The notes below the pieces were generated by a model. The model ran no database searches, was not told where the DNA came from, and saw only the letters and a list, made by a program, of their open reading frames with translations. Shown piece after piece: positions 4,144 to 27,694 of a DNA stretch of 64,000 nt. Origin of the DNA: an uncultured Patescibacteria group bacterium. GTDB taxonomy: Bacteria; Patescibacteriota; Microgenomatia; UBA1400; PJMF01. The position numbers were made by a program, and so were the translations under genes. Every line of letters begins with the position of its first letter. The stretch's first letter is position 1. The stretch is from positions 186,699 to 250,698 of the forward strand of contig CAJQIG010000002.1 of assembly GCA_905478415.1 (NCBI GenBank). Direction: 5' to 3'.

Positions 4144-4166
4144 CTTTTGTATAGAATTGAATAAAA

Positions 4167-4197: not shown

Positions 4198-4218
4198 CTG
4201 TGTACTACATAATTAAGA

Positions 4219-4249
4219 CAAAAAAACGCCAAGGTAGATCCTTGGCGTT
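4219..4249 (-). terminator. Rho-independent terminator of the minus-strand gene 4261..4584
   Basis: ACGCCAAGG pairs with CCTTGGCGT. The plus-strand A-run before it is a T-run on the minus strand. Confidence 0.75.
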
Positions 4250-4260
4250 TGACATACGTA

Positions 4261-4584: not shown

Positions 4585-4748
4585 ATTTCTTCATCCCTTT
4601 ATCCAATTTTAAAAAAACTGGGTAAATAAATACGTTTATTAAAGAGTGGCTATTCCAACTTAAATTAAAATAATACAAGTTGAAACAACATCCTATATTA
4701 TATACAAAAATGACAAAAAGTCAAGTGAAATAAATAAAAATGACAGAG

Positions 4749-4780
4749 AAAAGCCCCAGCATGATTGCCGGGGCTTTTTA
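4749..4780. terminator. Hairpin terminator, possibly bidirectional
   Basis: AGCCCCAGC pairs with GCCGGGGCT, with T-runs on both strands. It lies directly after the stop of 4789..5211 (minus strand). Confidence 0.6.
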
Positions 4781-4788
4781 ACAAGTAA

Positions 4789-5211
4789 CTAATCATCGGT
4801 GGTACACACCATTTTTTCGCGGCGCGTACCCCAAATGCATGTACCAATAATTTTATTTCGACCTTCTACATGCACTTCGAAGTCCTGGGAACAGCTGTTG
4901 CCGCCGGTGATTTGGTGGCATGCTTGTTCTAGAAGCACAACGTTCTCAGGCTCGATACCATAATTGGTATACCTTGTCTCGTTACCTAGATAGGTAGCAA
5001 TCCTGGCTTCATTTGGCATTTGGCCAAAGTAGTTACTGACTGCGTTTGTGACAAAGAGTGTTCCTAGTAGGGCGGCCAAAATAATCGAAAGAATAAAGAG
5101 TCCAACGGCTAGATCTTGAACAAACCACTGCCAAATTTTTTGAATTTTGACTTGGCCTTTTTCAAGAGTCTTTAAAACTTTCAGTTTTAACTCATATTTT
5201 TTTTGTTTCAT
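4789..5211 (-). CDS. Small membrane-anchored protein, paralog 2 of the Cys-pair family
   Basis: TM segment LAVGLFILSIILAALLGTLFV. C-terminal IGTCIWGTRREKMVC motif. Its start overlaps the stop of the upstream paralog by 4 bp. Confidence 0.6.
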   Translation of the reverse strand: MKQKKYELKLKVLKTLEKGQVKIQKIWQWFVQDLAVGLFILSIILAALLGTLFVTNAVSNYFGQMPNEARIATYLGNETRYTNYGIEPENVVLLEQACHQITGGNSCSQDFEVHVEGRNKIIGTCIWGTRREKMVCTTDD

Positions 5212-5606
5212 GATTCCTCCAAAAAAGCTAGAACGCCAGGTTTCTGGCGTTGATTAAAATCGTCAATAAAGCACCTTGGAATCGCATAGCTTCCAGTAGT
5301 GCATACACCAGTTGAGTAAGTGTCATCGGTGAAGATGACGTCGAACTTGACTTGGCAGATTTTTTGAATAGTATTTTTTCCATCTAGTTTGCAGTGCCAG
5401 TCAGATTGAAAGGCAATATGTTTTACTAGAAGGGAAGGATTCTCTTCAATCTTTTCTAAATTCTCATTCAAAAGCAGTTCTGCTTGCTGTTCAGTCAGCG
5501 GATGGACTTCGACCAGGGTATACGATAGTAATCCTTGAAAAAGCATCCCAGTACAAAAGAGAATCAGAGCCCACATATGGGGCTCATATTTTTTGAAACG
5601 AGCCAC
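5208..5606 (-). CDS. Small membrane-anchored protein, paralog 3 of the Cys-pair family
   Basis: TM segment WALILFCTGMLFQGLL. C-terminal TGVCTTGSYAIPRC motif. ATGA overlap with the downstream paralog. Confidence 0.6.
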   Translation of the reverse strand: MARFKKYEPHMWALILFCTGMLFQGLLSYTLVEVHPLTEQQAELLLNENLEKIEENPSLLVKHIAFQSDWHCKLDGKNTIQKICQVKFDVIFTDDTYSTGVCTTGSYAIPRCFIDDFNQRQKPGVLAFLEES

Positions 5607-5776
5607 GAGGGCCTCCTTTTGTTTTTTTATAGTTACTTGTTAAAGAAAAACATTACAATTGGGTTGTGAAACACAACTGTAATGTCCTATATTATATATT
5701 AGGAATCATTTTTATTCAAGCAATGGCTTGGAAAAAGACCTATGGTACAATTTGTTTCGTAATTATTTGGAGTTTC

Positions 5777-6640
5777 ATGCAAGAAAATAAAAAAATACTT
5801 TCTATTGGTTCACTGGTTATCGATAGAATTAACGGTAAGAAAAGACCTGGTGGAGAGGCTACTAATGTAGCGGTCAATACACAACGGTTAGGAGTAGATG
5901 CTTCGTTGTTAACAGTTGCTGCGCGCAGCCCAGAGTCGGTTGTGTTGCAGGAGGAAATTGAGGCTTTGGGTGTTTCATTTTTTGCATTATCACAGGTTTT
6001 AGAAAAACTTCCAGAATGTCACATCTATATGGGTGCAGATGGGAAAGAAGAAGGATATGATTGGATTGATAATGGTTTAGAAAGTGCTTATGCAACTTCT
6101 GAAGTTCCTGTTTCACTTGTTCAAGCATACCAAACAGTTTATTTAGCAGCTTGTGAACCAGGATTCGCGTACCGTGTTTCTCAACAGGTGCAATCTCATC
6201 AAACTGTCGTTTTTAATCCTGGCACAAGAATATATGAAGATCCAGGCATGTTTATGCAGACACATAGGCAAAGCTCTATCACATTTATGAATCAATCGGA
6301 GTTCGATCATTTGCAGGTTAAAAAATATGTTAGGACAGAAGAGGATCTTTTATATTCTTCAGAACAGATGGTTATTATTACGGCTGGAAAAAATGGAGCT
6401 CGGTTAGTAACTAAAGAGGGCATAAAAAACTATCCAGCTCAGTTGGTGCCAGCTATTGATGAAACGGGAGCGGGTGACTCCTTTGCTTCTGCAGTGATTT
6501 GGGCTTTAGGTAGAGGTTTAGAAATGGATGCGGCAATGGTCTCAGCAAGCATACTAGCATCACTCGTTGTTCAAAGGGTTGGAGCGCAAATAGATGCAGA
6601 AACGGCTGCTCACTTTATACAGCAAATTGTGAATCAGTAG
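5777..6640 (+). CDS. PfkB-family (ribokinase-like) carbohydrate/nucleoside kinase
   Basis: DETGAGDSFASAV matches the PfkB signature DTxGAGDxF. N-terminus is ILSIGSLVID...GGEATNVAV. ATG 5777 is preferred over GTG 5666 because the longer N-terminus is hydrophobic and implausible. Confidence 0.8.
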   Translation: MQENKKILSIGSLVIDRINGKKRPGGEATNVAVNTQRLGVDASLLTVAARSPESVVLQEEIEALGVSFFALSQVLEKLPECHIYMGADGKEEGYDWIDNGLESAYATSEVPVSLVQAYQTVYLAACEPGFAYRVSQQVQSHQTVVFNPGTRIYEDPGMFMQTHRQSSITFMNQSEFDHLQVKKYVRTEEDLLYSSEQMVIITAGKNGARLVTKEGIKNYPAQLVPAIDETGAGDSFASAVIWALGRGLEMDAAMVSASILASLVVQRVGAQIDAETAAHFIQQIVNQ

Positions 6641-6655
6641 TTACTGGATCAAATT

Positions 6656-7423
6656 TTATGTTACGTGTAAGGGGTGTTCAATTGGTGTGTTAGCCAATAT
6701 TTCAATTACTTGTTGGTAAGTGTGATCAATGTTTCCGAACTTTGGTGTAATTATTTGAATGATTCCATTTTTTTCAAGCAAAGCACAATGAGCTTGATCA
6801 GCTTTTCCTTCAGCAACGCGGATGACTTGTTTTTCTGGAGAGTCTGTGGCTCGTTTTTGTAATGTTTTCTGAGTAAAATTTTCATCGGTGGGTACAACTC
6901 CAACCTTAATGGCTTGGGGAAGAAGGTATTCAACTTCACCTTCTATGCGGTTGGGAGGGGACTCCATAATGAGTTTTTTATTCGCTGCTAATAGTGAATA
7001 AATAATATCGATATCATATGCATAGGCATTACCATAGGCAGTCACAATTAAAAACAATTTTCCTGTTCCTTCCAGAATGTAGAGTTCATCATGAGATATT
7101 CCATATGAGCCTTTCTCGATTTCACCAGGTCTTATGGGTTGTCGAGTGGTGACGTATGGTGCTTCTTGGAAGCCAACTGTGTGTTCTAAAAAGGAGATCA
7201 AGGTGCCTTTTCCAGCTCCAGATGGGCCGGTAATGAGAATAACTTGATTACTTCTTTTTTGTATAAATGATATTTTTTCTTTGAGTTCAGTGGTTATTTT
7301 CTCAAGAGTTAGCATTTCAACTTGGTTGAGTAGCTGAGTGATAAAGTCAGGTCCAAGTGCTAAGAGTCTTTGATCAGTGAGGATATCTGCAGATTGTAGA
7401 GTAATAGGTTTTATTTCTTTCAT
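6656..7423 (-). CDS. Guanylate kinase-like P-loop protein with an N-terminal extension of about 60 aa
   Basis: GPSGAGKGT P-loop and TTRQPIRPGE...GNAYAYD resemble Gmk motifs (TTRxPRxGE...GNxYGT). Confidence 0.65.
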   Translation of the reverse strand: MKEIKPITLQSADILTDQRLLALGPDFITQLLNQVEMLTLEKITTELKEKISFIQKRSNQVILITGPSGAGKGTLISFLEHTVGFQEAPYVTTRQPIRPGEIEKGSYGISHDELYILEGTGKLFLIVTAYGNAYAYDIDIIYSLLAANKKLIMESPPNRIEGEVEYLLPQAIKVGVVPTDENFTQKTLQKRATDSPEKQVIRVAEGKADQAHCALLEKNGIIQIITPKFGNIDHTYQQVIEILANTPIEHPLHVT

Positions 7424-9006: not shown

Positions 9007-10302
9007 GTGACAAATCAAGTAGTTTGGCATGAAATCTCAGCAACTAAGTTGGCAGAAAAAATGGAAACTGGTGACTCTAACAGCGACTTACAACAGGCGC
9101 GTGGAATCAAGTATGGTCACCATACATATGGTGAAATGTATATGATTGAGCGTGAGAAATCACTTGGCCATTGGCCTCATTTCTTTGCTCAATTCTGTGC
9201 ACAACAGCAGTTGAAAGTTACTGGCAACATTACTGTTGTTGGTATCAATGATGGTCAAGAAGTGGCAGTCTTACCAGCTCGTAGTATTGTCGGTTTTGAC
9301 ATTGCTGCAGCGGCACTCGAACGTGGCCGTCAGGCATTTCCATACATTGATTTTAAATTGATGGATATCACGATTGGTGAGTTAGCGGCTAAAAATGCCG
9401 ACGTCTATCTCAGTTTCCGTACTGCCCATATTTTTTTTAATGAGCAGTTGGCTCACATTGTGAGTCAGGCTTATCGGAATTTGAAAGGCGGCGGCAAAGC
9501 TGTATTTTCAGTTCCAGGTGGCTATATGGAAGCAGATGGCACCATAGTGATTGGACAGAAAGTTGAAGGTGGTGTAAATCGCCAAAAACCTTTTGAAGAT
9601 GCCGGACGGATTGCGGAAGCAATGCGTGTTGCAGGCTTCTTAGATGTTGCAATTGTAGATCACGGTATTGAGATTTTTGTTGTTGGTTTGCGACCATGGA
9701 GTATTTTGTTTGTAAACGGCAGTCCTCGTTCAAAAGGGAACTCGGATCAACTGGTTACCTATTTGATGGGAGAAGCACAAGCGATGGGGTTTAGTCCTCA
9801 GTCTGTGAATCTTCGTTCAAAAAAACCAGCTCCGATTGCTTTTTGTACTGGGTGCGATCACTGTCACGCAGTGAAGCACAATGTCTGCGTTTTTAAAAAG
9901 GACTACTTCACGCTTGAGGTCGAACAGCGAATGCTTGATGCAGATGCTGTGTACTTGGTGAGTCCCAGCTACCAAGCTGGGGTCACTGGTTTCATGAAAA
10001 TCTTCATGGACCGGTGTGAAGTCTTCCGTAAAGGACGTTTGCTTAAGAACAAAGTATGTGGAGGAGCTGCTATCGGCGGCTATGCCGGCGGTGGGCAAGA
10101 GTCCATTTTGCATCAAATGCATTTCTTTGCACAAATCCTGGCAATGCGCTGGGTAGGTGCACATGGTAAACGTCGTTCTCACCTTGGTGGGCACCTAATC
10201 GGTTACGATAAGGGTGCTGTCATGGAAGATGAAGACGGCCTAACCAGTGCACGTAATGTGCTGGTTGAAATGCGAAGTTTATTGGAAGATATTGCAAGCT
10301 GA
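9007..10302 (+). CDS. Fusion protein: class-I methyltransferase-like N-domain plus iron-sulfur flavoprotein (Isf / NADPH-dependent FMN reductase-like) C-domain
   Basis: N-half has VVGINDGQE / GFDIAAAAL / LKGGGKAVFSVP. C-half has ILFVNGSPRSKGNSD plus the compact CTGCDHCHAVKHNVC (CX2CX2CX7C) motif. GTG start. Confidence 0.6.
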   Translation: MTNQVVWHEISATKLAEKMETGDSNSDLQQARGIKYGHHTYGEMYMIEREKSLGHWPHFFAQFCAQQQLKVTGNITVVGINDGQEVAVLPARSIVGFDIAAAALERGRQAFPYIDFKLMDITIGELAAKNADVYLSFRTAHIFFNEQLAHIVSQAYRNLKGGGKAVFSVPGGYMEADGTIVIGQKVEGGVNRQKPFEDAGRIAEAMRVAGFLDVAIVDHGIEIFVVGLRPWSILFVNGSPRSKGNSDQLVTYLMGEAQAMGFSPQSVNLRSKKPAPIAFCTGCDHCHAVKHNVCVFKKDYFTLEVEQRMLDADAVYLVSPSYQAGVTGFMKIFMDRCEVFRKGRLLKNKVCGGAAIGGYAGGGQESILHQMHFFAQILAMRWVGAHGKRRSHLGGHLIGYDKGAVMEDEDGLTSARNVLVEMRSLLEDIAS

Positions 10303-10360
10303 ACACATTTTTTTGAAGTTATAGAATGGGCTGGGTGTTTAATAACATCCAGCCCTTTTT

Positions 10361-10783
10361 TTATTTATTTTGTAGTTTTTCAATATCTACCTTGGTTGCA
10401 ACAGAGAGGGGGAGGTGTTGAGCTTCTTCGAGATTGAACCATTGTAGTTGTGAAATTTTTGTTGGTTCAAGGATCGTTGGGGTGCCGGAACGTATAGAGC
10501 AGATAAAAGTGAGTGCTACCCAATGTTGTTTTTCGTTGGTAAGGATATGATCAATGGTGCTCAGCTGGCTCTCTACCTGTATTATTACTCCAATTTCTTC
10601 TTGTACTTCTCTGATAAGAGCTTCTTGAAGTGTTTCACCAAACTCAACGGTACCGCCAGGAATTTCCCAAGTACCACGCTCATTTTTTGCAGCTGGTCCA
10701 CGTAAGCTAAGTAGAATTTTGTTATCAGGGTCTAAGATAACTGCTCCAACCCCAACCCCAATACAGTCTGTTCCTATTTTCAT
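10361..10783 (-). CDS. NUDIX hydrolase
   Basis: Nudix box GGTVEFGETLQEALIREVQEEIGV (GX5EX7REUXEEXGU). Confidence 0.9.
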   Translation of the reverse strand: MKIGTDCIGVGVGAVILDPDNKILLSLRGPAAKNERGTWEIPGGTVEFGETLQEALIREVQEEIGVIIQVESQLSTIDHILTNEKQHWVALTFICSIRSGTPTILEPTKISQLQWFNLEEAQHLPLSVATKVDIEKLQNK

Positions 10784-10844
10784 AGTTTTTTCTATAAAAA
10801 TGCCAGATTCATAGAATCTGGCATTTTAAATAACTTTTTTTTCT

Positions 10845-11561
10845 TTACACCTCAAAATCAACTTTAATCCCAGGACTCATGGTCGCAGAAAGAGTAGATT
10901 TAAGGACTTTTCCTTTAAGAGCAGTCATCAAAGCGTTGTAGTTTTCAACGAGTTCTTTTGTATCCATTGAAACTTTTCCAATGGTTACATGAATAACTGG
11001 TCGTTTCTTTTCTGTCTTAATGATCAGCTCACCTTTTTCAAGATCAGCCTTCTTCTGTTCTGGATTTGCAGTCACAGTACCGTTCTTTGGGTTTGGCATT
11101 AAGCCTCTTGGGCCCAAAACACGAGCGTGTTTGGCTATTTTAGGCATAAACTGTGGAGTCGTGATCAATGCATCAAAATCGATGTTGCCGGCTTCAATTT
11201 CAGCTAGGACAGCGTCATCAACGATAACTACTTTGAGTGATTTTCCAGTAGAGTGGGGAAGCGTAAGCTTGTTTTGGACTCCAGTTTCTCTGACAACTCC
11301 ATCAACAGTAATACTACCGTCGAATTTTGAGTATGAAAGTTTCTTGGTAAGTTCAATCGCAGAGAAAGCGTCGTAGATCTTGGTTTTATCGACCTGTGAA
11401 CGAGTTGCTACATACTTCTTGCTGCGAATTCGAGCAGCTTTTTTTTCTGCTTTTGGAGCAGCTGTTTCAGCATCGCTTTCTACAGCAGGTGCTTGTGTGT
11501 TTTCGACAATTTTGACCTCATCAGTGGTCGCGGACATGTCAACGTTTTTTTTCGATCCCAT
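10845..11561 (-). CDS. rplA: 50S ribosomal protein L1, with an N-terminal extension of about 45 aa
   Basis: GPRGLMPNPKNGTVT and overall L1 similarity. Located downstream of rplK. Confidence 0.95.
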   Translation of the reverse strand: MGSKKNVDMSATTDEVKIVENTQAPAVESDAETAAPKAEKKAARIRSKKYVATRSQVDKTKIYDAFSAIELTKKLSYSKFDGSITVDGVVRETGVQNKLTLPHSTGKSLKVVIVDDAVLAEIEAGNIDFDALITTPQFMPKIAKHARVLGPRGLMPNPKNGTVTANPEQKKADLEKGELIIKTEKKRPVIHVTIGKVSMDTKELVENYNALMTALKGKVLKSTLSATMSPGIKVDFEV

Positions 11562-11616
11562 GGTATCTCCTTAATTCCGTCAAAGCGGGGTATAAGTAAT
11601 TAATACTTTTCGTGCA

Positions 11617-11668
11617 TTGCACCTCTTTTATTCATCTGCTATCGCCAGGCTGAACAAAAGAGGTGCAA
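11617..11668 (-). promoter_or_regulatory. Perfect 13-bp stem-loop in the rplK-rplA intergenic region (candidate L1 autoregulatory/processing element)
   Basis: TTGCACCTCTTTT (11617-11629) pairs with AAAAGAGGTGCAA (11656-11668) around a 26-nt loop. No U-run follows on the coding (minus) strand. Confidence 0.35.
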
Positions 11669-11690
11669 GGTACTCTTTTTCTTCTTACAA

Positions 11691-12116
11691 TTACTCAGCA
11701 ATGGCAACACCCATACTTCGGGCTGCACCCTTGACTGAGTTCATAGCTGCTTCAACATCATTGGTGTTGAGGTCAGGTAGTTTTTCAGTAGCGATAGCTC
11801 GAACTTGATCCATTGTTAGGGTTCCCACTGAGTTGCGACCTGGAGTTTGACTTCCAGATTTGAGTTTGAGCACTTGCTTGATCATAGCTGATACTGGAGG
11901 TAGTTTGAGTTCGTATGTGAATGAACGGTCTGCATAGACAGTGATTTCAGCAGGAATAGTTTGACCTTTTTTGTCTTGAGTAGCAGCATTATACTGCTTC
12001 AAGAAGTCCATCATGTTGATTCCAGCTTGACCAAGAATAGGTCCCACTGGAGGAGCTGGAGTTGCGGTACCAGCTGGAAGATTAAGTTTGAGTTTGTTAA
12101 TTATTTTTTTTGCCAT
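11691..12116 (-). CDS. rplK: 50S ribosomal protein L11
   Basis: PAGTATPAPPVGPILGQAGINMMDF is a typical L11 N-domain. Located downstream of nusG. Confidence 0.97.
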   Translation of the reverse strand: MAKKIINKLKLNLPAGTATPAPPVGPILGQAGINMMDFLKQYNAATQDKKGQTIPAEITVYADRSFTYELKLPPVSAMIKQVLKLKSGSQTPGRNSVGTLTMDQVRAIATEKLPDLNTNDVEAAMNSVKGAARSMGVAIAE

Positions 12117-12136
12117 ACGTTGCTTTTATATTATTC

Positions 12137-12748
12137 TTATACTTTCTTTACTTGGAGGAAATCGAGGGTAACTGGAGTCTCACGACCGAAAATGTTAACC
12201 AGGACTTCGACTTGACCTTTTTCTTCATTAATTGCATTGACTGTTCCGAGGAAGTCGTTGAACGGACCATCGACAATGCGGACCGCTTCGCCTTCGACAT
12301 AATCTGCCTTGTATGAAGGAGCAGCTTGAGTCATGTACTTCATGATGGCTTTGACTTCATGCTTAGGAAGAGCAGTTGGTTTGTTACCAACTCCAACGAA
12401 ACCAGTGACTCCTTGAGTGGTGCGAACAGCTAACCAAGAATCATCTGTGAGTTCCATGTTAACTAACATGTACCCAGGGAAGATTTTTTCGCTGACAGTT
12501 TTTCGAGTTCCGCGTTTGATCTGAATTTTTTCTTGGGTTGGAATCAAAATTCCGAGAATTTTACCAGTTAAGTTCAAAGTTTCGACACGTTGCTTGAGGG
12601 CTTCAGCTACTTTGTTCTCGTGACCAGAGTAGGCGTGAACGACATACCAACGAGCCTTGCGGTTTTCGGCTTCCGAAACAACAATTAAGTTTGGGGTTTG
12701 CACCTTAACTTCTTGAACTTCTGGTGGTGTCATTGTTTGATCTGTCAT
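12137..12748 (-). CDS. nusG: Transcription termination/antitermination factor NusG
   Basis: ARWYVVHAYSGHENKV NGN domain and a C-terminal KOW domain (GEAVRIVDGPFNDFLGTV). secE-nusG-rplK-rplA synteny. Confidence 0.95.
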   Translation of the reverse strand: MTDQTMTPPEVQEVKVQTPNLIVVSEAENRKARWYVVHAYSGHENKVAEALKQRVETLNLTGKILGILIPTQEKIQIKRGTRKTVSEKIFPGYMLVNMELTDDSWLAVRTTQGVTGFVGVGNKPTALPKHEVKAIMKYMTQAAPSYKADYVEGEAVRIVDGPFNDFLGTVNAINEEKGQVEVLVNIFGRETPVTLDFLQVKKV

Positions 12749-18502: not shown

Positions 18503-18532
18503 AGCACCGGCCTTCGCGCCGGTGCTTTTTTT
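18503..18532 (+). terminator. Terminator hairpin, copy 1 of a duplicated 30-nt sequence
   Basis: AGCACCGGC-CTTC-GCGCCGGTGCT followed by T7. Identical to 19092-19121. Confidence 0.7.
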
Positions 18533-18743
18533 GCTTATATATTGATCTTTTACACCTCATATGATATATTATGAGCTAGTTACATTGCTTTTTAAAATAA
18601 TAACTTTTGGCTACAACAGCGAATACATCATGCTTTTTACGAAGTCTGGGTGTGTTGACTGTTGTGGTCAAGAGTATTGTTACGATTGACTGCACAAAAA
18701 TTTTTTCAACTTTTTCCACCTAATAATCAAAAGGAGCAAGAAA

Positions 18744-19091: not shown

Positions 19092-19121
19092 AGCACCGGC
19101 CTTCGCGCCGGTGCTTTTTTT
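19092..19121 (+). terminator. Terminator hairpin, copy 2 (it may double as the transcription-blocking hairpin at the IS200 left end)
   Basis: Identical 30 nt, AGCACCGGCCTTCGCGCCGGTGCTTTTTTT. Confidence 0.7.
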
Positions 19122-19740
19122 CGTAGCGAGGAAACTCCGGACAGTTCATCCATTGGAGCGAAGCGATAGTGTCCGGGGATGAACGCCTCATAGCACCGAA
19201 GGTGCTATGATGTCATCATGAAAACCCGGAAGTTAAATCATAGTGTGTATAAACACCAATATCACTTGGTATGGGGGACGAAATATCGTCGGAAATTTTT
19301 CAAGAAGTATGTTGGAGATGAATTTGAACATCTTCTATACGAATTAGTTAAAAAGAAGTATCCAGATTTATATATCGAAGCGGTTAATACAGACCAGGAT
19401 CATGTACATATACAGATAGAAATACCACCAACATATGCAGTGTCAGACGTAGTAAAGCGAATAAAATGGCATAGTAGTGTGTACCTCAAGAAGAAGTTCA
19501 AATTTATCGATAGAATGTATATAAATGGAAACATTTGGGGTGTGGGATATTACTCATCAACCATAGGATTGGACGAAGAAACAATTAGAAAATACATAGA
19601 ATATCAGGGGAAAGAAGAAGTCCTCCAGACACCGAGTCTATTTGAATAAAATTTTCATGAGAACTTGACCTTTAGGTCATTGCGAAGCAAATAGGAAACC
19701 CCGGACATTGGCGTAGCTGTCCGGGGAGGACGTCATTTTA
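19122..19740 (+). mobile_element. IS200/IS605-family insertion sequence (tnpA only); exact ends uncertain
   Basis: Y1-transposase gene flanked by related subterminal hairpins. Left: CTCCGGACA...TGTCCGGGGA (19135-19179). Right: CCCCGGACA...TGTCCGGGGA (19699-19727). Confidence 0.75.
19218..19649 (+). CDS. tnpA: IS200/IS605-family Y1 (HUH) transposase TnpA
   Basis: 143 aa. YHLVWGTKYRRKFF and DHVHIQIEIPP (HUH motif), then a C-terminal YIEYQ containing the catalytic-Tyr region. Confidence 0.9.
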   Translation: MKTRKLNHSVYKHQYHLVWGTKYRRKFFKKYVGDEFEHLLYELVKKKYPDLYIEAVNTDQDHVHIQIEIPPTYAVSDVVKRIKWHSSVYLKKKFKFIDRMYINGNIWGVGYYSSTIGLDEETIRKYIEYQGKEEVLQTPSLFE

Positions 19741-19791: not shown

Positions 19792-21108
19792 TTATTTTAC
19801 CGATTTTACAACTTTTATGATATGTTGGGCGCCGTGTGTGAGTGACGTGGGGAGGGCGTGAGCGTTGAGCATAGCTTGTTCAATCCATGAATGTTGTTTA
19901 CCACGGGTTGAAAGTAAGCTTTCGAGCTGAGGCACAATTGAGTCCAAGACAATTCGACGACCAATTTGTTTTTGTTCGAATACTTCACGAATTCGTTCTT
20001 CCCACGGTCCCCATTCGTCCAGTGTCAGCAAAAAGCTGCCGGCAGCAGCTGCATCGTAGGCCATATCGCCGGAAGGTTTGGTGATAAAACCATCGGCCCA
20101 TGGGAAGCCGTAGGTTTGGAGTTTTTCATTCGCGTCTACAATCTGTGGATGGTAGAGAACCCGGAGTGGGGCATTTTTATCTGTTTCATCAAATACTTTG
20201 ACACGGTGTTTTTTTGCGAGTTCGAGTACACTTTTATAAATATCTTCGTGCGTGCCACAGTAGATGAGCAAACTGAGTTTTCGGGTTTTTCTTCTAAGCT
20301 CTGGCAGTAGTTGTTCGAGCGCAATCAGTAGTTCTGGCTTGTTGGTTCCAAGTCCGCCAGTAGTGAGGCAAAGTTTGAGAATTCCACTGCGGTGAGGATG
20401 TTTTGTTTCTTTGGCTTTGAGGGTGCGAGGGTCGATGGGGGCGCCAGTGACAAAAATTCTACTTGGTTCGGCCGCTATCCCAAGCAACGCTGCTTTTTCG
20501 AGAAACTCTGTTTTGGTATTTTCATCAAACACACAGAAGTACATATTTTTTCTATATGAGTTGGTGACGTACTCATCCCGAACATGAGGATCAGTAATGA
20601 CCTGGACGATAGTTTTACCTTGAGAAGCCAAAATATTTCCTGCCGCAATATGAAGTGACAGAATAGGATGTTTAATTCCGGCTGTGACGTATAAAAGTGG
20701 GGGAGTAATACTATCAAGAATCGGTAGCTTACTACGTCCAAACCTGTCAATAAAGGCTTTAATGGTCTGGAGAATACTGTACCGAGCAATAGTCTTGCCA
20801 ATTTCTTCGGTGAGCACAATTGATTTCCAATCTTTTTTGGAAACATAATTCGTTGGGTCAAGGACCCAAGCTTTGGTGTGATCAACTTTTTTGCCCCAAG
20901 CCGCCGTAGCGATTGCTAGAGCCATGGAGTAGTGAGCTCTAGAGAACACAATATCGGGGGTATCGTCCCGAGCGGGGAGGCCATGCATTTCTTTTAGATC
21001 CTCTTTGTAGCTGCTCGAAACGGTGATGATTGGGACTTCAGTTTTTTCGAGAAAGAGCTTATCTTCTTTGAGTGTTTTAATGAGGAAGGGGTCGAATAGT
21101 TCGGGCAT
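19792..21108 (-). CDS. GT-B glycosyltransferase, MGDG-synthase/UgtP-like (GT28-like)
   Basis: QVITDPHVRDEY...VTGAPIDPR, and C-terminal GFITKPSGDMAYDAAAAG resembling the (K/S)PGGxTxxEA motif of diacylglycerol glycosyltransferases. Confidence 0.5.
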   Translation of the reverse strand: MPELFDPFLIKTLKEDKLFLEKTEVPIITVSSSYKEDLKEMHGLPARDDTPDIVFSRAHYSMALAIATAAWGKKVDHTKAWVLDPTNYVSKKDWKSIVLTEEIGKTIARYSILQTIKAFIDRFGRSKLPILDSITPPLLYVTAGIKHPILSLHIAAGNILASQGKTIVQVITDPHVRDEYVTNSYRKNMYFCVFDENTKTEFLEKAALLGIAAEPSRIFVTGAPIDPRTLKAKETKHPHRSGILKLCLTTGGLGTNKPELLIALEQLLPELRRKTRKLSLLIYCGTHEDIYKSVLELAKKHRVKVFDETDKNAPLRVLYHPQIVDANEKLQTYGFPWADGFITKPSGDMAYDAAAAGSFLLTLDEWGPWEERIREVFEQKQIGRRIVLDSIVPQLESLLSTRGKQHSWIEQAMLNAHALPTSLTHGAQHIIKVVKSVK

Positions 21109-23362: not shown

Positions 23363-23430
23363 GTGGAACCTATTTATAGATTAATATCTGTTTTACCCTC
23401 AACATAATCACGAATTAAAACCCCAAGCAG
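23363..23430. repeat. Possible split/inverted remnants of the cassette-boundary repeat
   Basis: GTGGAACCTATTTA (23363-23376) matches the right half of the repeat. GAATTAAAACCCCAAGCAG (23412-23430) matches the reverse complement of the left half. Confidence 0.3.
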
Positions 23431-23497
23431 AGTTTGATATGGAATATTTTTTGCCTTTAAACATACTAGAGTATTTTTACTACACAGACAGGAAATC

Positions 23498-24115
23498 ATG
23501 AGTGAGAACCCCCTGGATAGGATAAAATATAGGCAGTTCCAAAACACCTTAGAGAACAGAGGTGGAAGCGAGACGATTATTCGTAGTATGTCTAACATAC
23601 TAAAAAAGATGGCGGAAAATAACGTTTCGACAGTATTTTTTCTTGATCGATCAGCAAGACCTTTGGCCTATTTAGCCAAGGAAATGTGGCAGGTTATGTA
23701 CCAGGGACGTGAATTTCCCGCGGTACGATTCATAAATATTGGAAAAGAGACGAGTCAAAAAGATATTAATCAATCTGGTGGAGTAGGTGATATCTATTCG
23801 ATTCCAGACGATGGCACTATAATGATTATTGACGAATTTGTGATGCATGGGCACTCTCTCAGGAGAGCCAAAGAGCTCTTAGATAAGTCTTTTCCTAATA
23901 GAGAATTTATTACCATTTCACCGTACTTACATGAATTTAGAGAGTTGCCGGCGATCTTCAAGGGTATTGAAGACAGGTCAGTTGAAGGTCCGATGAAGTT
24001 TGTTGCGCAGCCTCACTCAGATCAAAGTTCAGTTGAAGCACGAATAAAATTGAGGAAATACCTCAAGGAGTTTGTCAAAAATAATGCTGAAAAAATTAAG
24101 GAGACTACGGAGTGA
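23498..24115 (+). CDS. Phosphoribosyltransferase-like protein
   Basis: TIMIIDEFVMHGHSL resembles a PRPP-binding loop (hhhhDDhhxTGxT). Confidence 0.45.
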   Translation: MSENPLDRIKYRQFQNTLENRGGSETIIRSMSNILKKMAENNVSTVFFLDRSARPLAYLAKEMWQVMYQGREFPAVRFINIGKETSQKDINQSGGVGDIYSIPDDGTIMIIDEFVMHGHSLRRAKELLDKSFPNREFITISPYLHEFRELPAIFKGIEDRSVEGPMKFVAQPHSDQSSVEARIKLRKYLKEFVKNNAEKIKETTE

Positions 24116-24125
24116 CTAATTTTGC

Positions 24126-24155
24126 GGGGACTAGTGACGGATGTTCGAACCTATA
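24126..24155. repeat. Cassette-boundary repeat, copy A
   Basis: GGGGACTAGTGACGGATGTTCGAACCTATA. It abuts the stop codon of 24156..24419. Confidence 0.85.
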
Positions 24156-24419
24156 TCAGTATTGATCATGGTTTACTAAATCAAAAAAGATGTAAACATC
24201 ATCTTCTTTAATTGCCAATGCTCTCAAATCTCCTTTTATTCGAATAGCATACTGACTAGATCTTTCACCTTTTAATCTATGCAAACGCAACCCCATATGA
24301 TAGGGATTTTCTTTAAATTTTTTAAACTGTTTTCTAAAAATTTTATCCAAAAGAGGATTTTTATTCTTAAACTTTACTACTTTTCTCTTAAATGACTCTG
24401 TATAAACAACTTTTATCAT
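24156..24419 (-). CDS. RelE/ParE-superfamily type II toxin
   Basis: 87 aa. NPYHMGLRLHRLKGERSSQYAIRIKGDLRAL fits the RelE/ParE pattern. 4-bp overlap with the upstream antitoxin. Confidence 0.8.
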   Translation of the reverse strand: MIKVVYTESFKRKVVKFKNKNPLLDKIFRKQFKKFKENPYHMGLRLHRLKGERSSQYAIRIKGDLRALAIKEDDVYIFFDLVNHDQY

Positions 24420-24673
24420 AAAGAGTCAAAAAATTCATCAACATTAATCATTTCGTGGGTTTTTCCCAAACGATGCTCTTCCAAAGCCTTTAAGCCACTT
24501 TCTTCTGTTTTCTTACTCATTTTAAAAGTTGGAACTTCATTTTTCAAAATTTCTTCTGAGGCTTTACTTATAAAAAAACGAATAGTTTTGGGTAAATTAT
24601 ACCCAAATTGAGAACCATAATTTTTTAAAAGGGTAGCTTCTTGAGTTGTAAGAGTTAATTGAACTTTAGTCAT
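24416..24673 (-). CDS. Type II antitoxin (RHH-like)
   Basis: 85 aa. VQLTLTTQEATLLKNYGSQFGYNLPKTIRFFI is a beta-strand plus helices, RHH-like. Translationally coupled to the toxin. Confidence 0.7.
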   Translation of the reverse strand: MTKVQLTLTTQEATLLKNYGSQFGYNLPKTIRFFISKASEEILKNEVPTFKMSKKTEESGLKALEEHRLGKTHEMINVDEFFDSL

Positions 24674-24740
24674 ATGTATTAGTATTATATTATAAAATCA
24701 TTGTTTTGTAAATACTTTAATACTACTTTTGATATTTCTT

Positions 24741-24770
24741 GGGGATTAGTGAAGGATGTTCGAACCTATT
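24741..24770. repeat. Cassette-boundary repeat, copy B
   Basis: GGGGATTAGTGAAGGATGTTCGAACCTATT. It overlaps the stop codon of 24766..25044. Confidence 0.85.
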
Positions 24771-25044
24771 TGTACACCTGATCATGAGTTCCAAAACTAA
24801 AAAAAACAATTTTAGACATGTTTCCATCCTGATTATAGTAATAAAGTAATCGATGGGACATATCTACAGAAATACTCCAACTCTCTCTTTGACCTCCGCT
24901 CAATTTGTGGAGTCGTAATGACGGATGATTTTTGTTCTGTTCGAACAATACTAACTGCTTTTTAATTTTTGTGAATAACTGTGTATCGTTTTTTTTAACT
25001 CTTTGCAATTGCTTCAAACATTTTGGTGAAAACGCAATTTCCAT
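24766..25044 (-). CDS. RelE/ParE-superfamily type II toxin
   Basis: 92 aa. NKNHPSLRLHKLSGGQRESWSISVDMSHRLLY. Paralogous to 24156..24419. Confidence 0.8.
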   Translation of the reverse strand: MEIAFSPKCLKQLQRVKKNDTQLFTKIKKQLVLFEQNKNHPSLRLHKLSGGQRESWSISVDMSHRLLYYYNQDGNMSKIVFFSFGTHDQVYK

Positions 25045-25046
25045 TG

Positions 25047-25307
25047 CTATAGATCCTGGAGCAACTTGCCAACGTCATTAGTTTGGATTAAATCTCCAGT
25101 TTTTTCTGCCTCTACAGCCTCTTTAAGATCGTTAGTTGATTGACTGGACATTTCAAAAACAGGATAGTCAACGTCTTGAACATCATTTATCACTAAATTT
25201 CTGATGTAAGCTGATAAGCTAAGACCGTATTTATTAGCTTTAGTCTGCAAGTAACCTTGCAACTGGACTGGTAATGTAACTCTAATTTGAGTAGTTTGTG
25301 TTTGCAT
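25047..25307 (-). CDS. Type II antitoxin (ribbon-helix-helix)
   Basis: 86 aa. QIRVTLPVQLQGYLQTKANKYGLSLSAYIRNLV is a typical RHH. Ends 2 nt before the toxin start. Confidence 0.75.
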   Translation of the reverse strand: MQTQTTQIRVTLPVQLQGYLQTKANKYGLSLSAYIRNLVINDVQDVDYPVFEMSSQSTNDLKEAVEAEKTGDLIQTNDVGKLLQDL

Positions 25308-25371
25308 AAAGCCATTATAGTCTAATTAAAGCATTTATCAAGTACTAATCAAGGCTATTTTGTGTACTTTT

Positions 25372-25402
25372 CAGGGCCTAGTGAAAAATGTTGGAACCCA
25401 TA
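25372..25402. repeat. Cassette-boundary repeat, copy C (more divergent)
   Basis: AGGGCCTAGTGAAAAATGTTGGAACCCATAT. It lies 27 nt beyond the stop of 25430..26032. Confidence 0.75.
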
Positions 25403-25429
25403 TCAACTGTAAGTACATGACTTCATTTG

Positions 25430-26032
25430 CTATTTATCAAAAACAACAACAATGCCATCAATGCTTTTCTTAAATTCAGAACATCTTTGATCATTATATC
25501 TTTGGGTGATTTTATCCATTACTTTGGAATCAACCCCGTTAAATTCCCAAGAATCACTTAGCCTGCTGCTAAAAAATAATGTATCGAATTTAATGACAAT
25601 TTTAAGTGTTTTTAAACTATCAGGTGAAAGATTAAAAAACCAATGAATTAAATCATTAAAAGCAGCATGATGACAACCTTCTACAGGAGTTGTTTCCCCA
25701 CCCATTAACATTACTTCCAATAAACTTGCCCCATCTTTTGACAATAATGCCGTTAAGTCTTCGGGGTTGATAATATCATAGTCATGACCATATTTTTTTC
25801 GTCTTTCTAAAGCAATATTGGGATGATTGTTGAGATAGCTAGAGACAACATGTGGAGCATTTACATATAGACCCCAATGTGCATCTTTTGACTTAAAACC
25901 TGTTACACATATATTTAAATTATACCTTTGATCATCAAAAATTGCTTGCATAGCCTCTCGAGCAGGTTCTTTATAATAAACTTCTCTAATAGGGTGTATT
26001 GCTAAAGCAACGCTTAGATTTTCATTTAACAT
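25430..26032 (-). CDS. Hypothetical protein (single-gene cassette)
   Basis: 200-aa ORF with no recognisable motif. Confidence 0.5.
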   Translation of the reverse strand: MLNENLSVALAIHPIREVYYKEPAREAMQAIFDDQRYNLNICVTGFKSKDAHWGLYVNAPHVVSSYLNNHPNIALERRKKYGHDYDIINPEDLTALLSKDGASLLEVMLMGGETTPVEGCHHAAFNDLIHWFFNLSPDSLKTLKIVIKFDTLFFSSRLSDSWEFNGVDSKVMDKITQRYNDQRCSEFKKSIDGIVVVFDK

Positions 26033-26109
26033 ATTTACCTCTATTCTCTTCTAAAATATCTGTTTATATTTTTAATTCAGCATTCAGCAAACTTATATAA
26101 TAAATACAA

Positions 26110-26144
26110 GGGGCTTGTTACTTGAGGGATGTTCGAACCTATTT
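26110..26144. repeat. Cassette-boundary repeat, copy D (about 5-nt insertion in the left half)
   Basis: GGGGCTTGTTACTTGAGGGATGTTCGAACCTATTT. It lies 8 nt beyond the stop of 26153..26806. Confidence 0.8.
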
Positions 26145-26152
26145 TAAGCTCG

Positions 26153-26806
26153 TCACTTCTTCCTAGCAACCACCACAAAATATTTTAATACTCCAAAATA
26201 GCGAAGTGTTTTTTCTTCAACTACTATATTGCCCGCAGCCTTTATGTAATTTGATAGCTCTTTTTGTTTATACATCACATCATAAGGATGATCTAATATT
26301 ATTCTAAGAAGTTTACCTAGCGGAGATTCAAACGTTTCAATTGAAAAATCCTCCATAATTATCAGTCCCTTAGGTTTTAAAGTTCTCGTTATCTCTTTAA
26401 CTGCTTTCTTCCATTCTGGAATGTGATGAAGAACTCCAAAGTCAAACACTGCATCAAAGGTATTGTCTTTGAACGGCAATTTTGTCGTACTTGCTACTTG
26501 AAAATCAATGTTTTTATTAGAATACTTTCCTTGAGCGATACTAATCATTTTTGAATCAAGGTCAGTAGCAATGATTTTTCTGGGAGAAAAGTGCTTCATG
26601 ATAAGTTGACTACCATATCCACTACCACATCCAATTTCTAATGTCTTATTTATCTTCCCTGGATTAACTAACTTTCTGAGTCGTGGTATCTCCAAAGTAC
26701 TTTGAAACAACCGACGCATTGGGTTATTCATTAGTAGGAATTCAATAGTATTGAGAATCATGAATGTAGTATACCATGTGATTAAAAAGAAACCATTTAT
26801 AGGCAA
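26153..26806 (-). CDS. Class I SAM-dependent methyltransferase (true start probably internal, M16 or M26)
   Basis: LEIGCGSGYGS (motif I), ATDLD (post-I), FDAVFDFGVLHH, LKPKGLIIMED. Confidence 0.85.
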   Translation of the reverse strand: MPINGFFLITWYTTFMILNTIEFLLMNNPMRRLFQSTLEIPRLRKLVNPGKINKTLEIGCGSGYGSQLIMKHFSPRKIIATDLDSKMISIAQGKYSNKNIDFQVASTTKLPFKDNTFDAVFDFGVLHHIPEWKKAVKEITRTLKPKGLIIMEDFSIETFESPLGKLLRIILDHPYDVMYKQKELSNYIKAAGNIVVEEKTLRYFGVLKYFVVVARKK

Positions 26807-26821
26807 ATATTGCTGTTTTGC

Positions 26822-26851
26822 AGGGATTAGTGAACTATGTTGGAACCTATT
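26822..26851. repeat. Cassette-boundary repeat, copy E
   Basis: AGGGATTAGTGAACTATGTTGGAACCTATT. It abuts the stop codon of 26852..27178. Confidence 0.85.
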
Positions 26852-27178
26852 TTACCTTTCTCGTAAAACAAAACTCAATTTAATACTATCGTTTAACTCA
26901 ACTTTTTCTTTGTTTCTAACCTTTACTGGTAATGCAATGAAGTGTGTACCATCACCCATAGGGAGAAATGATGTTTTCCAACTACTGCTACCTACTTTTG
27001 CAGTTATAGCTACCAAACCCCTATCTAAAAGATGTTTAGTCTCATTCGTATATTTTTTAGGAACTCTCACATAATGCCAACCCTTTTTTTGGGGAAATAG
27101 TTCTACTTTTCCAGATATTGCAAATTTTTTCTTGGTTAATAATGGGGTCAAATTAGACATATAAAAAATATAGCCCAA
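26852..27178 (-). CDS. DUF1905-like small protein
   Basis: 108 aa. KKGWHYVRVPKKYTNE...WKTSFLPMGDGTHFIALPVKVR resembles the DUF1905 pattern. Confidence 0.5.
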   Translation of the reverse strand: MGYIFYMSNLTPLLTKKKFAISGKVELFPQKKGWHYVRVPKKYTNETKHLLDRGLVAITAKVGSSSWKTSFLPMGDGTHFIALPVKVRNKEKVELNDSIKLSFVLRER

Positions 27179-27180
27179 AT

Positions 27181-27510
27181 TTACATCTCATGAACAGGAT
27201 AAACACTCACCGTACTACCATCGTTATCCATTATCACTGGATGATCTTTTAATAAAGACTGGGCTGCTTCTAGGCTCTCAGCTTGAACTATTCCATATCC
27301 TGTTACATCATCTTCTTGAAGCTTTGAACCATCAACAGAAGTCACATGTTGAGGCCCAACTGGATTTCCAAAATCAACTACAGCATCAACATGAGTTTCT
27401 TTCCACTTCATCCAAACACCCATAACTCCTTGTACTTCTTCTTCTGACATTGACGCAAATTTTTCCATTGCTTCTTTAGGTGAGTGATAAATTAGAAGAA
27501 ACTTTTTCAT
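27181..27510 (-). CDS. YCII/DGPF-related domain protein
   Basis: 109 aa. The MKKFLLIYHSP... start and overall length/pattern resemble YCII-related proteins. Confidence 0.45.
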   Translation of the reverse strand: MKKFLLIYHSPKEAMEKFASMSEEEVQGVMGVWMKWKETHVDAVVDFGNPVGPQHVTSVDGSKLQEDDVTGYGIVQAESLEAAQSLLKDHPVIMDNDGSTVSVYPVHEM

Positions 27511-27573
27511 AGCGTGATCCTTTACTACATGTTTTTATTCTTTATCTTAACATAATTTAGAACCTAATTTATT

Positions 27574-27604
27574 GGGGATAAGTTAACAAAAAAAGAACTA
27601 TAAA
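27574..27604. repeat. Cassette-boundary repeat, copy F (degenerate), nearest the tRNA-Trp 3' end; an extra half-site lies at 27557-27570
   Basis: GGGGATAAGTTAACAAAAAAAGAACTATAAA compared with the consensus GGGGATTAGTGAAGGATGTTCGAACCTAT. TTAGAACCTAATTT lies just upstream. Confidence 0.5.
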
Positions 27605-27623
27605 TAGCTCTAATTCAAAACTG

Positions 27624-27694
27624 CAGGGCCAGAGGGAATCGAACCCCCGTCAAAGGTTTTGGAGACCTCTATTCTACCGCTGAACTATGGCCCT
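27624..27694 (-). tRNA. tRNA-Trp (anticodon CCA)
   Basis: Minus-strand cloverleaf: acceptor AGGGCCA/TGGCCCT, anticodon stem GAGGT/ACCTT with loop CTCCAAA, T-loop TTCGATT. No encoded CCA. Confidence 0.9.

Follow-up and report, generated by a model that had tools for sequence, protein, structure and literature searches.

An integron-like array of small gene cassettes at the 3' end of tRNA-Trp recurs in Patescibacteria and points to a recombinase acting in trans

The 64,000-nucleotide stretch of DNA analysed here (hereafter the window), from an uncultured Patescibacteria group bacterium, carries at 24.1-27.6 kb an array of five minus-strand gene cassettes bounded by five direct repeats of about 33 nt, plus a decayed sixth. 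The array lies next to a tRNA-Trp(CCA) gene (27623-27694, minus strand; recognized by ARAGORN, and by Rfam as a tRNA with 67.5 bits), whose 3' end, ...GGCCCTGC|A at 27623, faces the cassettes. We hold with moderate confidence that this locus is one instance of an integron-like cassette platform that recurs in Patescibacteria, docks at tRNA-Trp and is served by a candidate trans-acting recombinase.

The five repeats, already noticed in a preliminary description of this DNA, were recovered by a repeat search of the window (a family of direct repeats at 24.1, 24.7, 25.4, 26.1 and 26.8 kb), by a pattern search (a 20-nt consensus with up to three mismatches gave four matches in 64 kb, all in the array, against 0 expected from 100 shuffles) and by an nhmmer profile, which found all five copies and nothing else significant in the window. 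All are on the minus strand and each closes one cassette. R1 (24121-24156; nhmmer E=6e-13), the distal and last repeat, closes cassette 5 and adjoins the stop codon of a convergent gene for a 205-amino-acid phosphoribosyltransferase (PRTase)-like protein. R2 (24736-24771; E=3e-11) closes cassette 4, the TAG stop codon of its toxin gene falling within the ATAG of the repeat, and R3 (25368-25403; E=7e-11; ATATGGGTTCCAACATTTTTCACTAGGCCCTGAAAA) closes cassette 3. R4 (26106-26144), which has a 5-nt insertion and a diverged 3' part and is a partial nhmmer match (26123-26146; E=3e-6), closes cassette 2. R5 (26817-26852; E=6e-13; AAATAGGTTCCAACATAGTTCACTAATCCCTGCAAAA on the tRNA strand) closes cassette 1 and is abutted by the stop codon of the DUF1905 gene. 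As for the degenerate sixth copy that had been reported, R6 (27567-27607, minus strand, placed by alignment about 15 nt past the tRNA-Trp 3' end; CTTATCCCCAATAAAT on the tRNA strand), it is real, but only the 3' half of the repeat is conserved in it: ATTTATTGGGGATAAG at 27567-27582 is the exact variant found in R2 (two matches against 0.04 expected), and R6 also matches exactly ATTTNTTGGGGATNAG, which it has in common only with R2. We regard R6 as the leftover of an emptied or deleted first cassette. Three additional half-sites proposed at 23363 (12 nt, E=0.83), 23412 and 27557 turned out to be no better than chance, or weak.

Counted from the tRNA gene, and all on the minus strand, cassette 1 (26853-27566) comprises genes for a YCII-like protein of 109 amino acids (27181-27510; Pfam YCII 1.6e-4, under the cut-off) and a DUF1905 protein of 108 amino acids (26852-27178; Pfam DUF1905 1.8e-13). 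Cassette 2 (26145-26816) encodes a class I S-adenosylmethionine (SAM)-dependent methyltransferase (26153-26806; Pfam Methyltransf_11, 8e-26, with generic NCBIfam matches only). Cassette 3 (25404-26105) encodes an unannotated 200-amino-acid protein (25430-26032) for which we found no match in Pfam, NCBIfam or PADLOC and no homologue among the other arrays compared. The last two cassettes are toxin-antitoxin (TA) pairs: cassette 4, or TA2 (24772-25367), consists of an RHH-type antitoxin of 86 amino acids (25047-25307) and a RelE/YafQ-like toxin of 92 amino acids (24766-25044), and cassette 5, or TA1 (24157-24735), of an antitoxin of 85 amino acids (24416-24673) and a RelE/YafQ-like toxin of 87 amino acids (24156-24419). 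Both toxins, annotated with Pfam and NCBIfam, score below the curated cut-offs; each has a small partner encoded upstream, one of which gives a weak RHH/NikA-like match. TA2 is preceded by the promoter TTGATA-16-TATAAT (25341->25314; 11/12 in the promoter scan) and TA1 by TTTACA-17-TATAAT (24712->24684), the two best promoter-like sites of the region: the toxin-antitoxin cassettes, at least, bring their own promoters. The cargo is therefore as first described (two TA pairs, a SAM methyltransferase, a 200-amino-acid protein and a DUF1905 protein with a weak YCII-like partner), and so are the adjoining tRNA-Trp(CCA) gene and the AT-rich character of the island, the GC content of which is 32.5% against 42.3% in the rest of the window. 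Read along the sequence, it drops from about 0.42 in the flanks to 0.31-0.34 within the array, where the GC skew also changes sign.

The PRTase-like gene that converges on the last repeat (23364-24115) scores below the Pfam cut-off, gives a weak PADLOC match to ShosT and is preceded at 23364-23375 by the 12-nt match to the 5' part of the repeat whose E-value is given above. An origin as an old inverted cassette is possible, but the GC content is host-like and the other arrays contain no homologue.

The window array is probably quiescent, since R3, R4 and R6 have decayed and all the sampled contigs are identical. Indeed, the strain-level polymorphism in cassette content that one might have looked for is absent from the 18 contigs, from several samples, that encode the flanking proteins of the window array; each matches the window at 99.9% identity or more, with no difference in cassette content. 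Note that the block formed by tRNA-Trp and the array is inverted in the window relative to the usual order (a gene for a 438-amino-acid protein, tRNA-Trp, array).

The repeat is defined by its sequence and not by a fold. Fifty-two copies align without gaps to AAATAGGTTCNAACATCCTTCACTAGTCCCTGCAAA (tRNA strand), nearly all positions being conserved in at least 85% of them. The central N departs from this: 23 copies have C there, 20 have G and 9 have T. The palindrome GTTCGAAC, which had been taken for the core of the repeat, occurs in 20 of the 52 copies; the variation of its central base rules it out as a recombinase dyad and makes it an accident of some copies, and the conserved positions have no dyad symmetry. 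As single-stranded DNA, the repeat core has a minimum free energy of 0 and -0.4 kcal/mol, no lower than expected from shuffles (z +0.9 to +1.0). Nor does the extended form of 75 nt fold (z +0.6), and across both strands and all forms the values range from 0 to -2.6 kcal/mol with z-scores of +0.6 to +1.0. The alignment contains no compensatory variation, a terminator scan found nothing terminator-like in the repeats, and Rfam 15, applied at permissive thresholds to the window region and five related loci, returned tRNAs alone as significant, which speaks against membership of the repeat in a known RNA or attC family. The attC sites of integrons are made of imperfect inverted repeats (R''-L''...L'-R') that form single-stranded DNA hairpins, with GTTRRRY as R'. 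The GTTCGAA of the repeat does not fit GTTRRRY, and its central base is the variable one. The early statement that the repeat is unlike attC is borne out both by the lack of a hairpin and by the length of about 33 nt.

What the repeat does resemble is the end of a tRNA. Its last 9 nt, CCCTGCAAA, are identical to the tRNA-Trp 3' end and the first trailer bases in every tRNA-Trp examined, and the eight tRNA-Trp genes examined all have CCCTGC at their end and A as the next base. A T-loop-like GGTTCGA is the other common block, and the local alignment of repeat and tRNA-Trp beats 2000 of 2000 shuffles. The suspected likeness to the tRNA-Trp 3' end thus stands for CCCTGCAAA and loses its specificity for the T-arm half: the left part of the repeat, TAGGTTCGAA..TCCT, is T-arm-like in a generic way, tRNA-Tyr scoring equal to tRNA-Trp. 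The repeat is also 5 nt longer than the matching tRNA segment, and would be unable to replace the tRNA end.

In a subset of repeats from related loci (L021, L023, L026, L032 and L034; for instance L032 3115-3187), the site is extended to about 72 nt (TTATTATAAGCCCAAAACCACCTCCCAACTCGAGGAAAAATAGG...). The upstream part recalls the tRNA-Trp anticodon loop (CCAAAACC) and is followed by a CCTC-N7-GAGG hairpin like a long extra arm; this extended site is non-coding in most copies.

These related loci were collected by an exact scan of 185,579 species, one genome each, with the 23-nt pattern TAGTGANNNATGTTSGAACCYAT. Sixteen contigs matched, about four being expected by chance according to our estimate. 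Fourteen of them are Patescibacteria-type metagenome-assembled genomes (MAGs) with arrays, assigned to Pacebacteria, Amesbacteria, Lloydbacteria, 'Paceibacterota' or 'Patescibacteria group', apart from four contigs that bear the names Gammaproteobacteria or Pseudomonadales. Two loci so titled in which the 5' flank of tRNA-Trp is visible (L027 and L032) have the gene neighbourhood of the Candidate Phyla Radiation (CPR), and L034 shares its contig, which comes from isolate 'HK-STAS-PATE-15', with L032. The remaining two matches, in Thioglobus and Bathyarchaeum, look like chance. A metagenome scan with a stricter pattern gave 26 more contigs or loci, and the profile added more diverged copies around each seed, so that each locus is an array. 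The pooled set comprises 43 loci with 133 repeats, nearly all from Patescibacteria, in which the repeats are spaced by a median of 804 nt (range 224-4397) and never lie on mixed strands (0 of 43 loci). Once multi-sample duplicates are removed, about 12 distinct arrays are left.

The arrays are tied to a single gene. In all 22 loci that contain tRNA-Trp(CCA), every repeat is 3' of the tRNA and on the same strand, the tRNA is intact and the first repeat lies 413-1750 nt from its end. The genes 5' of tRNA-Trp vary by lineage while the array constantly follows the tRNA; it is therefore the tRNA gene, and not a neighbour, that defines the site. Co-directionality with the tRNA extends to 85 of 100 non-identical array open reading frames (ORFs), and for 32 of these 85 the stop lies in the next repeat or at most 10 nt away from it. 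The low GC content also recurs: in the 12 genomes checked the array is at 0.32-0.40 and the flanks at 0.35-0.45, the array always being at or below its flanks. We read 8-20 kb per related locus, with flanks of up to 10 kb on each side, and neither these flanks nor the 64 kb of the window contain copies of the repeat outside the single oriented arrays. A dispersed repeat of the repetitive extragenic palindromic or bacterial interspersed mosaic element (REP/BIME) type, or of the terminator type, is contradicted by this distribution in the sequence read, together with the lack of a fold and of a terminator; the preliminary description had kept open that the repeat might be such a ubiquitous element.

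Three loci show arrays in other states or settings. L064 contains a small array (9920-12000) with no tRNA-Trp within 10 kb and with a lineage-specific variant of the repeat (AGGTTCTGACATCCTCCATCAGTCCCTGCAA) beside more degenerate copies, which shows that an array can lie apart from the tRNA or persist after its loss. L068 (~9880-12500) has an ectopic array of three cassettes (a TA2-like pair, a TA1-like pair, and an SNase gene with a 54-amino-acid ORF) directly after tRNA-Leu(CAA), between dnaB and lgt. That array is headed by a partial copy of the tRNA-Trp 3' end (GTTAGATTCGAGTCCTAGTAGGCCTGCAAAT), one of its repeats is split by a 24-nt insertion, and the syntenic loci L065 and L066 have no cassettes at this place. 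In L063, more decayed sites lie downstream of the one intact cassette.

Individual cassettes are shared between arrays that are otherwise different. TA1 of the window, a marine sequence, is 89% identical in nucleotide sequence and 80-92% in amino acid sequence to a cassette of a Pacebacteria MAG from Crystal Geyser groundwater (L026/L043/L051), and the repeat end is also where the similarity stops. Homologues of TA2 are found in six loci besides the window (L050, L051, L049, L063, L056 and L064), and the pair of genes or cassettes next to TA2 is different in each of the seven. The TA2 of the window and the first cassette of L063 are 82% identical in nucleotide sequence, whereas the core genes of the two loci (nusG, rplK, an NTP-transferase gene and the 438-amino-acid protein gene) are 64-74% identical. 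In L050, the closest syntenic relative, the genes 5' of tRNA-Trp are the same as in the window and the core proteins are 53-75% identical; its cassette set differs from that of the window, the sole common cassette being TA2, at another position. Relatives thus vary in gene content exactly at the repeat boundaries, as had been anticipated for a mobile array. The TA2 antitoxin family itself has 71 homologues in a database of 5.8 billion proteins, and every source name given is Pacebacteria or Patescibacteria. These names, along with the homologous loci, are the grounds on which the analysis placed the window in Patescibacteria.

The boundaries of these shared cassettes locate the junction. Between homologous cassettes, similarity starts directly after the upstream ...CCCTGCAA, spans the conserved promoter (TTGATA-16-TATAAT or TTTACA-17-TATAAT) and the genes, and ends at the cassette's own ...CCCTGCAA. 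When the TA1 cassettes are compared, the downstream repeat has two mismatches and the upstream repeat about seven. Since the downstream repeat diverges with the cassette and the upstream one does not, the repeat belongs to the 3' end of the cassette. The left side of the junction is revealed by TA2: in L063, where it is the first cassette, the real tRNA-Trp 3' end, ...GGCCCTGC, is immediately followed by its 5' end (AAAATACATAG..), while in the window, L050, L051, L049 and L064 the homologous 5' end (AAAGTACACAA..) follows the ...CCCTGC of a repeat, at the same position. The junction, CCCTGC|A, is the same at the tRNA end and at the repeat end, and the two are therefore interchangeable left partners. 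The exchange point is accordingly placed within or at the common CCCTGCA, given that a crossover further 5', for instance in the T-loop-like block, would destroy the tRNA and that all the tRNAs are intact.

L032 contains an exact tandem duplication (3221-4952 and 4953-6684; 100% identity at the protein level) with a period of 1732 nt, the duplicated block consisting of a 150-nt element, a cassette for a 196-amino-acid protein and a cassette for a 147-amino-acid protein. It reflects either a recent recombination between sites or an assembly artefact.

We propose the following scheme. A cassette consists of between one and three genes, which mostly read in the direction of the tRNA and in some cases have a promoter of their own, followed by the 3' site AAATAGGTTCNAACATCCTTCACTAGTCCCTGCAAA. 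In a free and probably circular form, it would recombine through its own site with the tRNA 3' end or with the site of another cassette, strand exchange taking place inside the common CCCTGCA, whose length of 7 bp is typical of the overlap region of tyrosine recombinases. The 3' end of tRNA-Trp, at the head of the array, is the proposed docking site, an analogue of attI or attB: the tRNA would stay intact, the new cassette would come to lie beside it and the older ones would be pushed outward. The recombinase would be provided in trans by the chromosome or by a helper element, and would most plausibly be a tyrosine recombinase.

Several observations weigh against this scheme. No recombinase of any class was found in the sets searched, namely precomputed Pfam annotation of 0-55 kb of the window, Pfam scans of about 200 array-linked ORFs of at least 140 amino acids from the related loci, and five further 20-kb contexts; two of these Pfam scans covered the best 25 families, so that a weak singleton match could be hidden. 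The central recombination step is for this reason unproven, and the mechanism is deduced. More specifically, there is no Phage_integrase domain in these sets and no intI beside any of the about 12 distinct arrays, and a check for a recombinase near other copies of the repeat, proposed at the outset, gave none in the related loci; as no enzyme is in or beside the arrays, the recombinase would be encoded elsewhere and act in trans. Nor did we see a circular cassette, an empty site or polymorphism within the population represented by the 18 nearly identical contigs. The conservation of the repeat is one-sided: it extends over 24 nt 5' of the proposed overlap, and the 3' side is just A/T-rich, which is unusual for a core site of a double-strand tyrosine or serine recombinase. 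In integrons a comparable one-sided geometry arises via hairpin folding, which is not available here because the repeat does not fold. The geometry suggests a recognition mode unlike that at classical double-strand tyrosine- or serine-recombinase core sites; it could reflect arm-type binding on one side or another kind of enzyme. In addition, some arrays (L064, L068) are not beside an intact tRNA-Trp, and the loci were found with the repeat as bait, which biases both its conservation and its prevalence upward. Finally, none of these results demonstrates mobility at the present day.

The candidates for the enzyme that could be named were rejected. The Y1 transposase of the IS200-like element, the gene for which is present in two loci only (window 19218-19649; L047 1381-1842), belongs to an ordinary insertion sequence (IS) whose own hairpins are unlike the repeat, and no IS200/IS605-type end hairpins are found on the cassettes. 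In the window the element spans 19130-19740, its Y1 gene being flanked by those hairpins (..CCGGACAG..TGTCCGGGGA); the L047 element, 39% identical, lies just past the last repeat. The IS30-family transposase found in or beside some arrays likewise belongs to an ordinary IS that has inverted repeats of 29 bp and lies between repeats of the array. One copy (HTH_38 and rve domains; terminal inverted repeats CCTGCATTCGCACATGAAGTGCAACACTT) extends from L042 8172 to the contig end joined to L067 1-1095, between two repeats, and another, 76% identical, lies near the end of another array (L038, ~2890-3975); these copies look like opportunistic insertions into a dispensable locus. The gene for the 438-amino-acid protein (window 19792-21108, minus strand) is a syntenic core gene with nothing recombinase-like, which the inversion separates from the window array. 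Its product has no significant Pfam or NCBIfam match, is 50-65% identical in 11 related loci, where the gene adjoins tRNA-Trp, and by eye looks like a GT-B glycosyltransferase. A gene for a 188-amino-acid protein, divergent from tRNA-Trp and thus placed like intI, is not conserved between the window and L050 and encodes no recognizable domain.

The lack of an enzyme near any of the 43 arrays would be expected if no dedicated recombinase existed and cassettes were exchanged by natural transformation and RecA, the repeat and tRNA-Trp serving as portable homology anchors. The genome encodes DprA, CPR bacteria are generally thought to take up DNA, the repeats have the high identity that homology-driven exchange needs, and the exact tandem duplication of the two-cassette block in L032 is of the kind produced by unequal crossing-over. 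We nevertheless judge this explanation unlikely. The 33-36 bp of the repeat are at or under the length that RecA uses efficiently, and the tRNA end and the repeat have just 9 + 7 nt in common, yet cassettes abut both at the same nucleotide. Homologous exchange also leaves without account the presence of a bounded, oriented, tRNA-like 33-nt block at the 3' end of unrelated cassettes, and the near-invariance of this block across lineages whose core proteins are 50-65% identical.

Alternatively, the arrays could have been built by serial integration, at tRNA-Trp, of elements that carried integrases and later lost them, in which case the repeats would be leftover att sites. Repeated integration at a tRNA gene does give tandem elements split by partial tRNA copies (bioRxiv 10.1101/2020.12.28.424599), the repeat is tRNA-like, and true partial tRNA-Trp 3' ends are present in L021, L032, L034, L056 and L068. 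However, the 43 loci contain no integrase gene or recognizable fragment of one; far from being decaying remnants, the units are small (median 0.8 kb), their genes are intact and their boundaries precise, and the same single cassette recurs beside different neighbours. The repeat, moreover, has its own consensus, which exceeds the tRNA end by 5 nt and could not substitute for it, and is better conserved across lineages than a neutral relic would be. No autonomous carrier, and no phage or plasmid vehicle, turned up when IMG/VR viral contigs were scanned for exact patterns and two cassettes were compared by blastn with PLSDB and INPHARED; we consider this origin rather improbable. Far less credible still is a role of the repeat at the level of the transcript, as a cis-acting tRNA-like 3' processing or stability element or a terminator at a hypervariable locus, with no function in DNA. 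Such a role would agree with the position of the repeat at the 3' end of co-directional genes, often over the stop codon, with its T-arm- and acceptor-like character on the transcribed strand and, we infer, with the position of its TTCACT, which for some cassettes is that of a -35 box relative to the TATAAT of the next cassette. It is contradicted by the structural results, in which no fold better than shuffles, compensatory variation, terminator or Rfam match was found, and it gives no account of the confinement to one locus per genome, the anchoring at tRNA-Trp and the coincidence of cassette boundaries with the repeat end.

The platform can be compared with several known systems. Like integrons and clusters of attC sites lacking integron-integrases (CALINs), it has a one-directional array, cassettes of one to three genes with a 3' site each, a single fixed head site, frequent TA cassettes and cassettes common to arrays of different hosts; site sequences are similar within an array, as are the Vibrio cholerae repeats (VCRs) of Vibrio integrons. 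A complete integron has intI adjacent to and divergent from the array head, and a CALIN lacks intI by definition. The differences lie in the site, which here is 33 bp long, conserved in sequence and unfolded, while attC is 55-141 nt long, conserved in structure and recombined as a hairpin, and in the head, which is the 3' end of a tRNA gene and not attI; no intI was found beside the arrays, and the TA cassettes, at least, have their own promoters. With neither an attC fold nor intI, the array falls outside the definition of an integron. The tycheposons of Prochlorococcus are elements of several kb that encode a tyrosine or large serine recombinase of their own, in many cases together with replication genes, and that have true partial tRNA copies at their flanks (bioRxiv 10.1101/2020.12.28.424599). 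They resemble the present arrays in their insertion 3' of a specific, intact tRNA, in tandem units split by tRNA-like direct repeats, in the expected position of newer units beside the tRNA and in forming a low-GC, cargo-rich island. They differ in that the units here are ~0.6-1.7 kb long, have no integration module and end in a diverged site whose match to the tRNA is limited to CCCTGCAAA and GGTTCGA. True partial tRNA-Trp ends are found in some related arrays but not in the window. Since no integrase was found in any cassette or flank searched, and the repeat resembles a partial tRNA copy only in these two blocks, the array does not fit the definition of a tRNA-targeting integrative element.

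Three further kinds of system share part of this anatomy. Cis-mobilizable elements (CIMEs) are flanked by att sites and have no integrase. Accretion arrays of this type similarly consist of att-bounded tandem units at the 3' end of a conserved gene, with a recombinase presumed to come from another element; by contrast with the arrays described here, they are decay products of integrative and conjugative or integrative and mobilizable elements (ICEs, IMEs), mobilized in cis by or beside an incoming integrase element, and no such partner is seen. The pdif modules of Acinetobacter and the integrative mobile elements exploiting Xer (IMEX) are also small, often encode TA pairs, have sites of ~28-30 bp and rely on a recombinase supplied in trans by the host. 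Their sites, however, have two 11-bp inverted Xer arms around a 6-bp spacer and alternate in orientation, whereas those of the arrays are direct, have no dyad and are aimed at a tRNA, not at dif; the cumulative GC skew of the window gives no sign of a replication terminus. Lacking dyad symmetry and alternating orientation, the arrays are not Xer-dependent modules, nor are they REP-type, the repeat not being dispersed through the sequence searched. Staphylococcal cassette chromosome (SCC) elements at rlmH (orfX), finally, form tandem composite arrays at the 3' end of one gene, with short direct repeats that contain the integration core, and include recombinase-less 'pseudo-SCC' units; their units are 3-60 kb long, and Ccr serine recombinases are encoded on at least one unit of an array. 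In functional terms the closest known system is the sedentary chromosomal integron or CALIN, and in topological terms the tRNA-anchored island of serial integration, e.g. tycheposons. The two readings offered by the preliminary description, an integron-like array or serial integration at a tRNA att site, both hold and turn out to be the same thing. Its broader claim, a cassette-capture system outside the classical definition of integrons, is supported, on a mechanism that we deduce from the junctions. As to kind, the system is one of site-specific cassette capture, and could form a new category if the recombinase proves unusual.

Searches of the literature by repeat sequence and by concept found no published description of this platform. 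CPR bacteria make up a large share of bacterial diversity and have tiny genomes; to our knowledge, few mobile elements have been described in them, and their exchange of accessory and conflict genes is poorly understood. A conserved single-locus platform, common to lineages whose core proteins are 50-65% identical, would if true give CPR bacteria a concrete and testable route of gene exchange, anchored at a tRNA gene that is universal, and would have arrived independently at what integrons achieve. We are evenly divided on the most far-reaching version, namely that CPR bacteria possess, in several lineages, their own integron analogue, in which tRNA-Trp plays the part of attI, the site is an unstructured 33-bp mimic of a tRNA end and the recombinase, encoded elsewhere, is possibly of a type new to cassette capture; such a system would circulate CPR-restricted TA, Fic/DOC and other accessory genes among marine, groundwater and sludge lineages. 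In practice, the 33-nt tag offers a sequence handle with which the flexible gene pool of CPR bacteria can be mined in metagenomes, in the manner of attC-targeted polymerase chain reaction, and the repeat and the tRNA-Trp 3' end form a defined substrate pair for a recombinase hunt. The platform would also explain contig breaks and binning losses near core tRNA and ribosomal-protein genes in CPR MAGs. If the enzyme recognizes a one-sided tRNA-like site, it could serve as a tool for site-specific integration.

Related arrays contain a second recurrent unit, not present in the window, a non-coding and GC-richer segment of 150-190 nt located after an intrinsic terminator. Its first bases are ATGGGGTYGATAGG, and at its other end is a true partial copy of the tRNA-Trp 3' end (..CGCAGATTCCCTCTGGCCCTGCA). 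Copies are found at L032 3221-3366, 4953-5098 and 6685-6830, L034 245-390 and 1833-1978, L056 1214-1365 and 2955-3101, and L021 4807-4992, the last directly after the real tRNA-Trp; a weak one is at L041 7453-7579. Its 5' end can pair with the tRNA-like 3' end, and an internal GCGAAGC hairpin has two compensatory changes; its folding energy is not better than that of shuffles (z -0.2 to -0.9) and Rfam gives no match. A small RNA cassette that has a 'type B' site is one possibility for this unit; another is the relic of a different element targeting tRNA-Trp.

Elsewhere in the window, the same intrinsic-terminator hairpin (AGCACCGGCCTTCGCGCCGGTGCT followed by a T run) occurs twice, at 18503-18533 and 19092-19121, about 590 nt apart. 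The twin hairpins flank an ORF of 107 amino acids located between rpmG and the IS200-like element.

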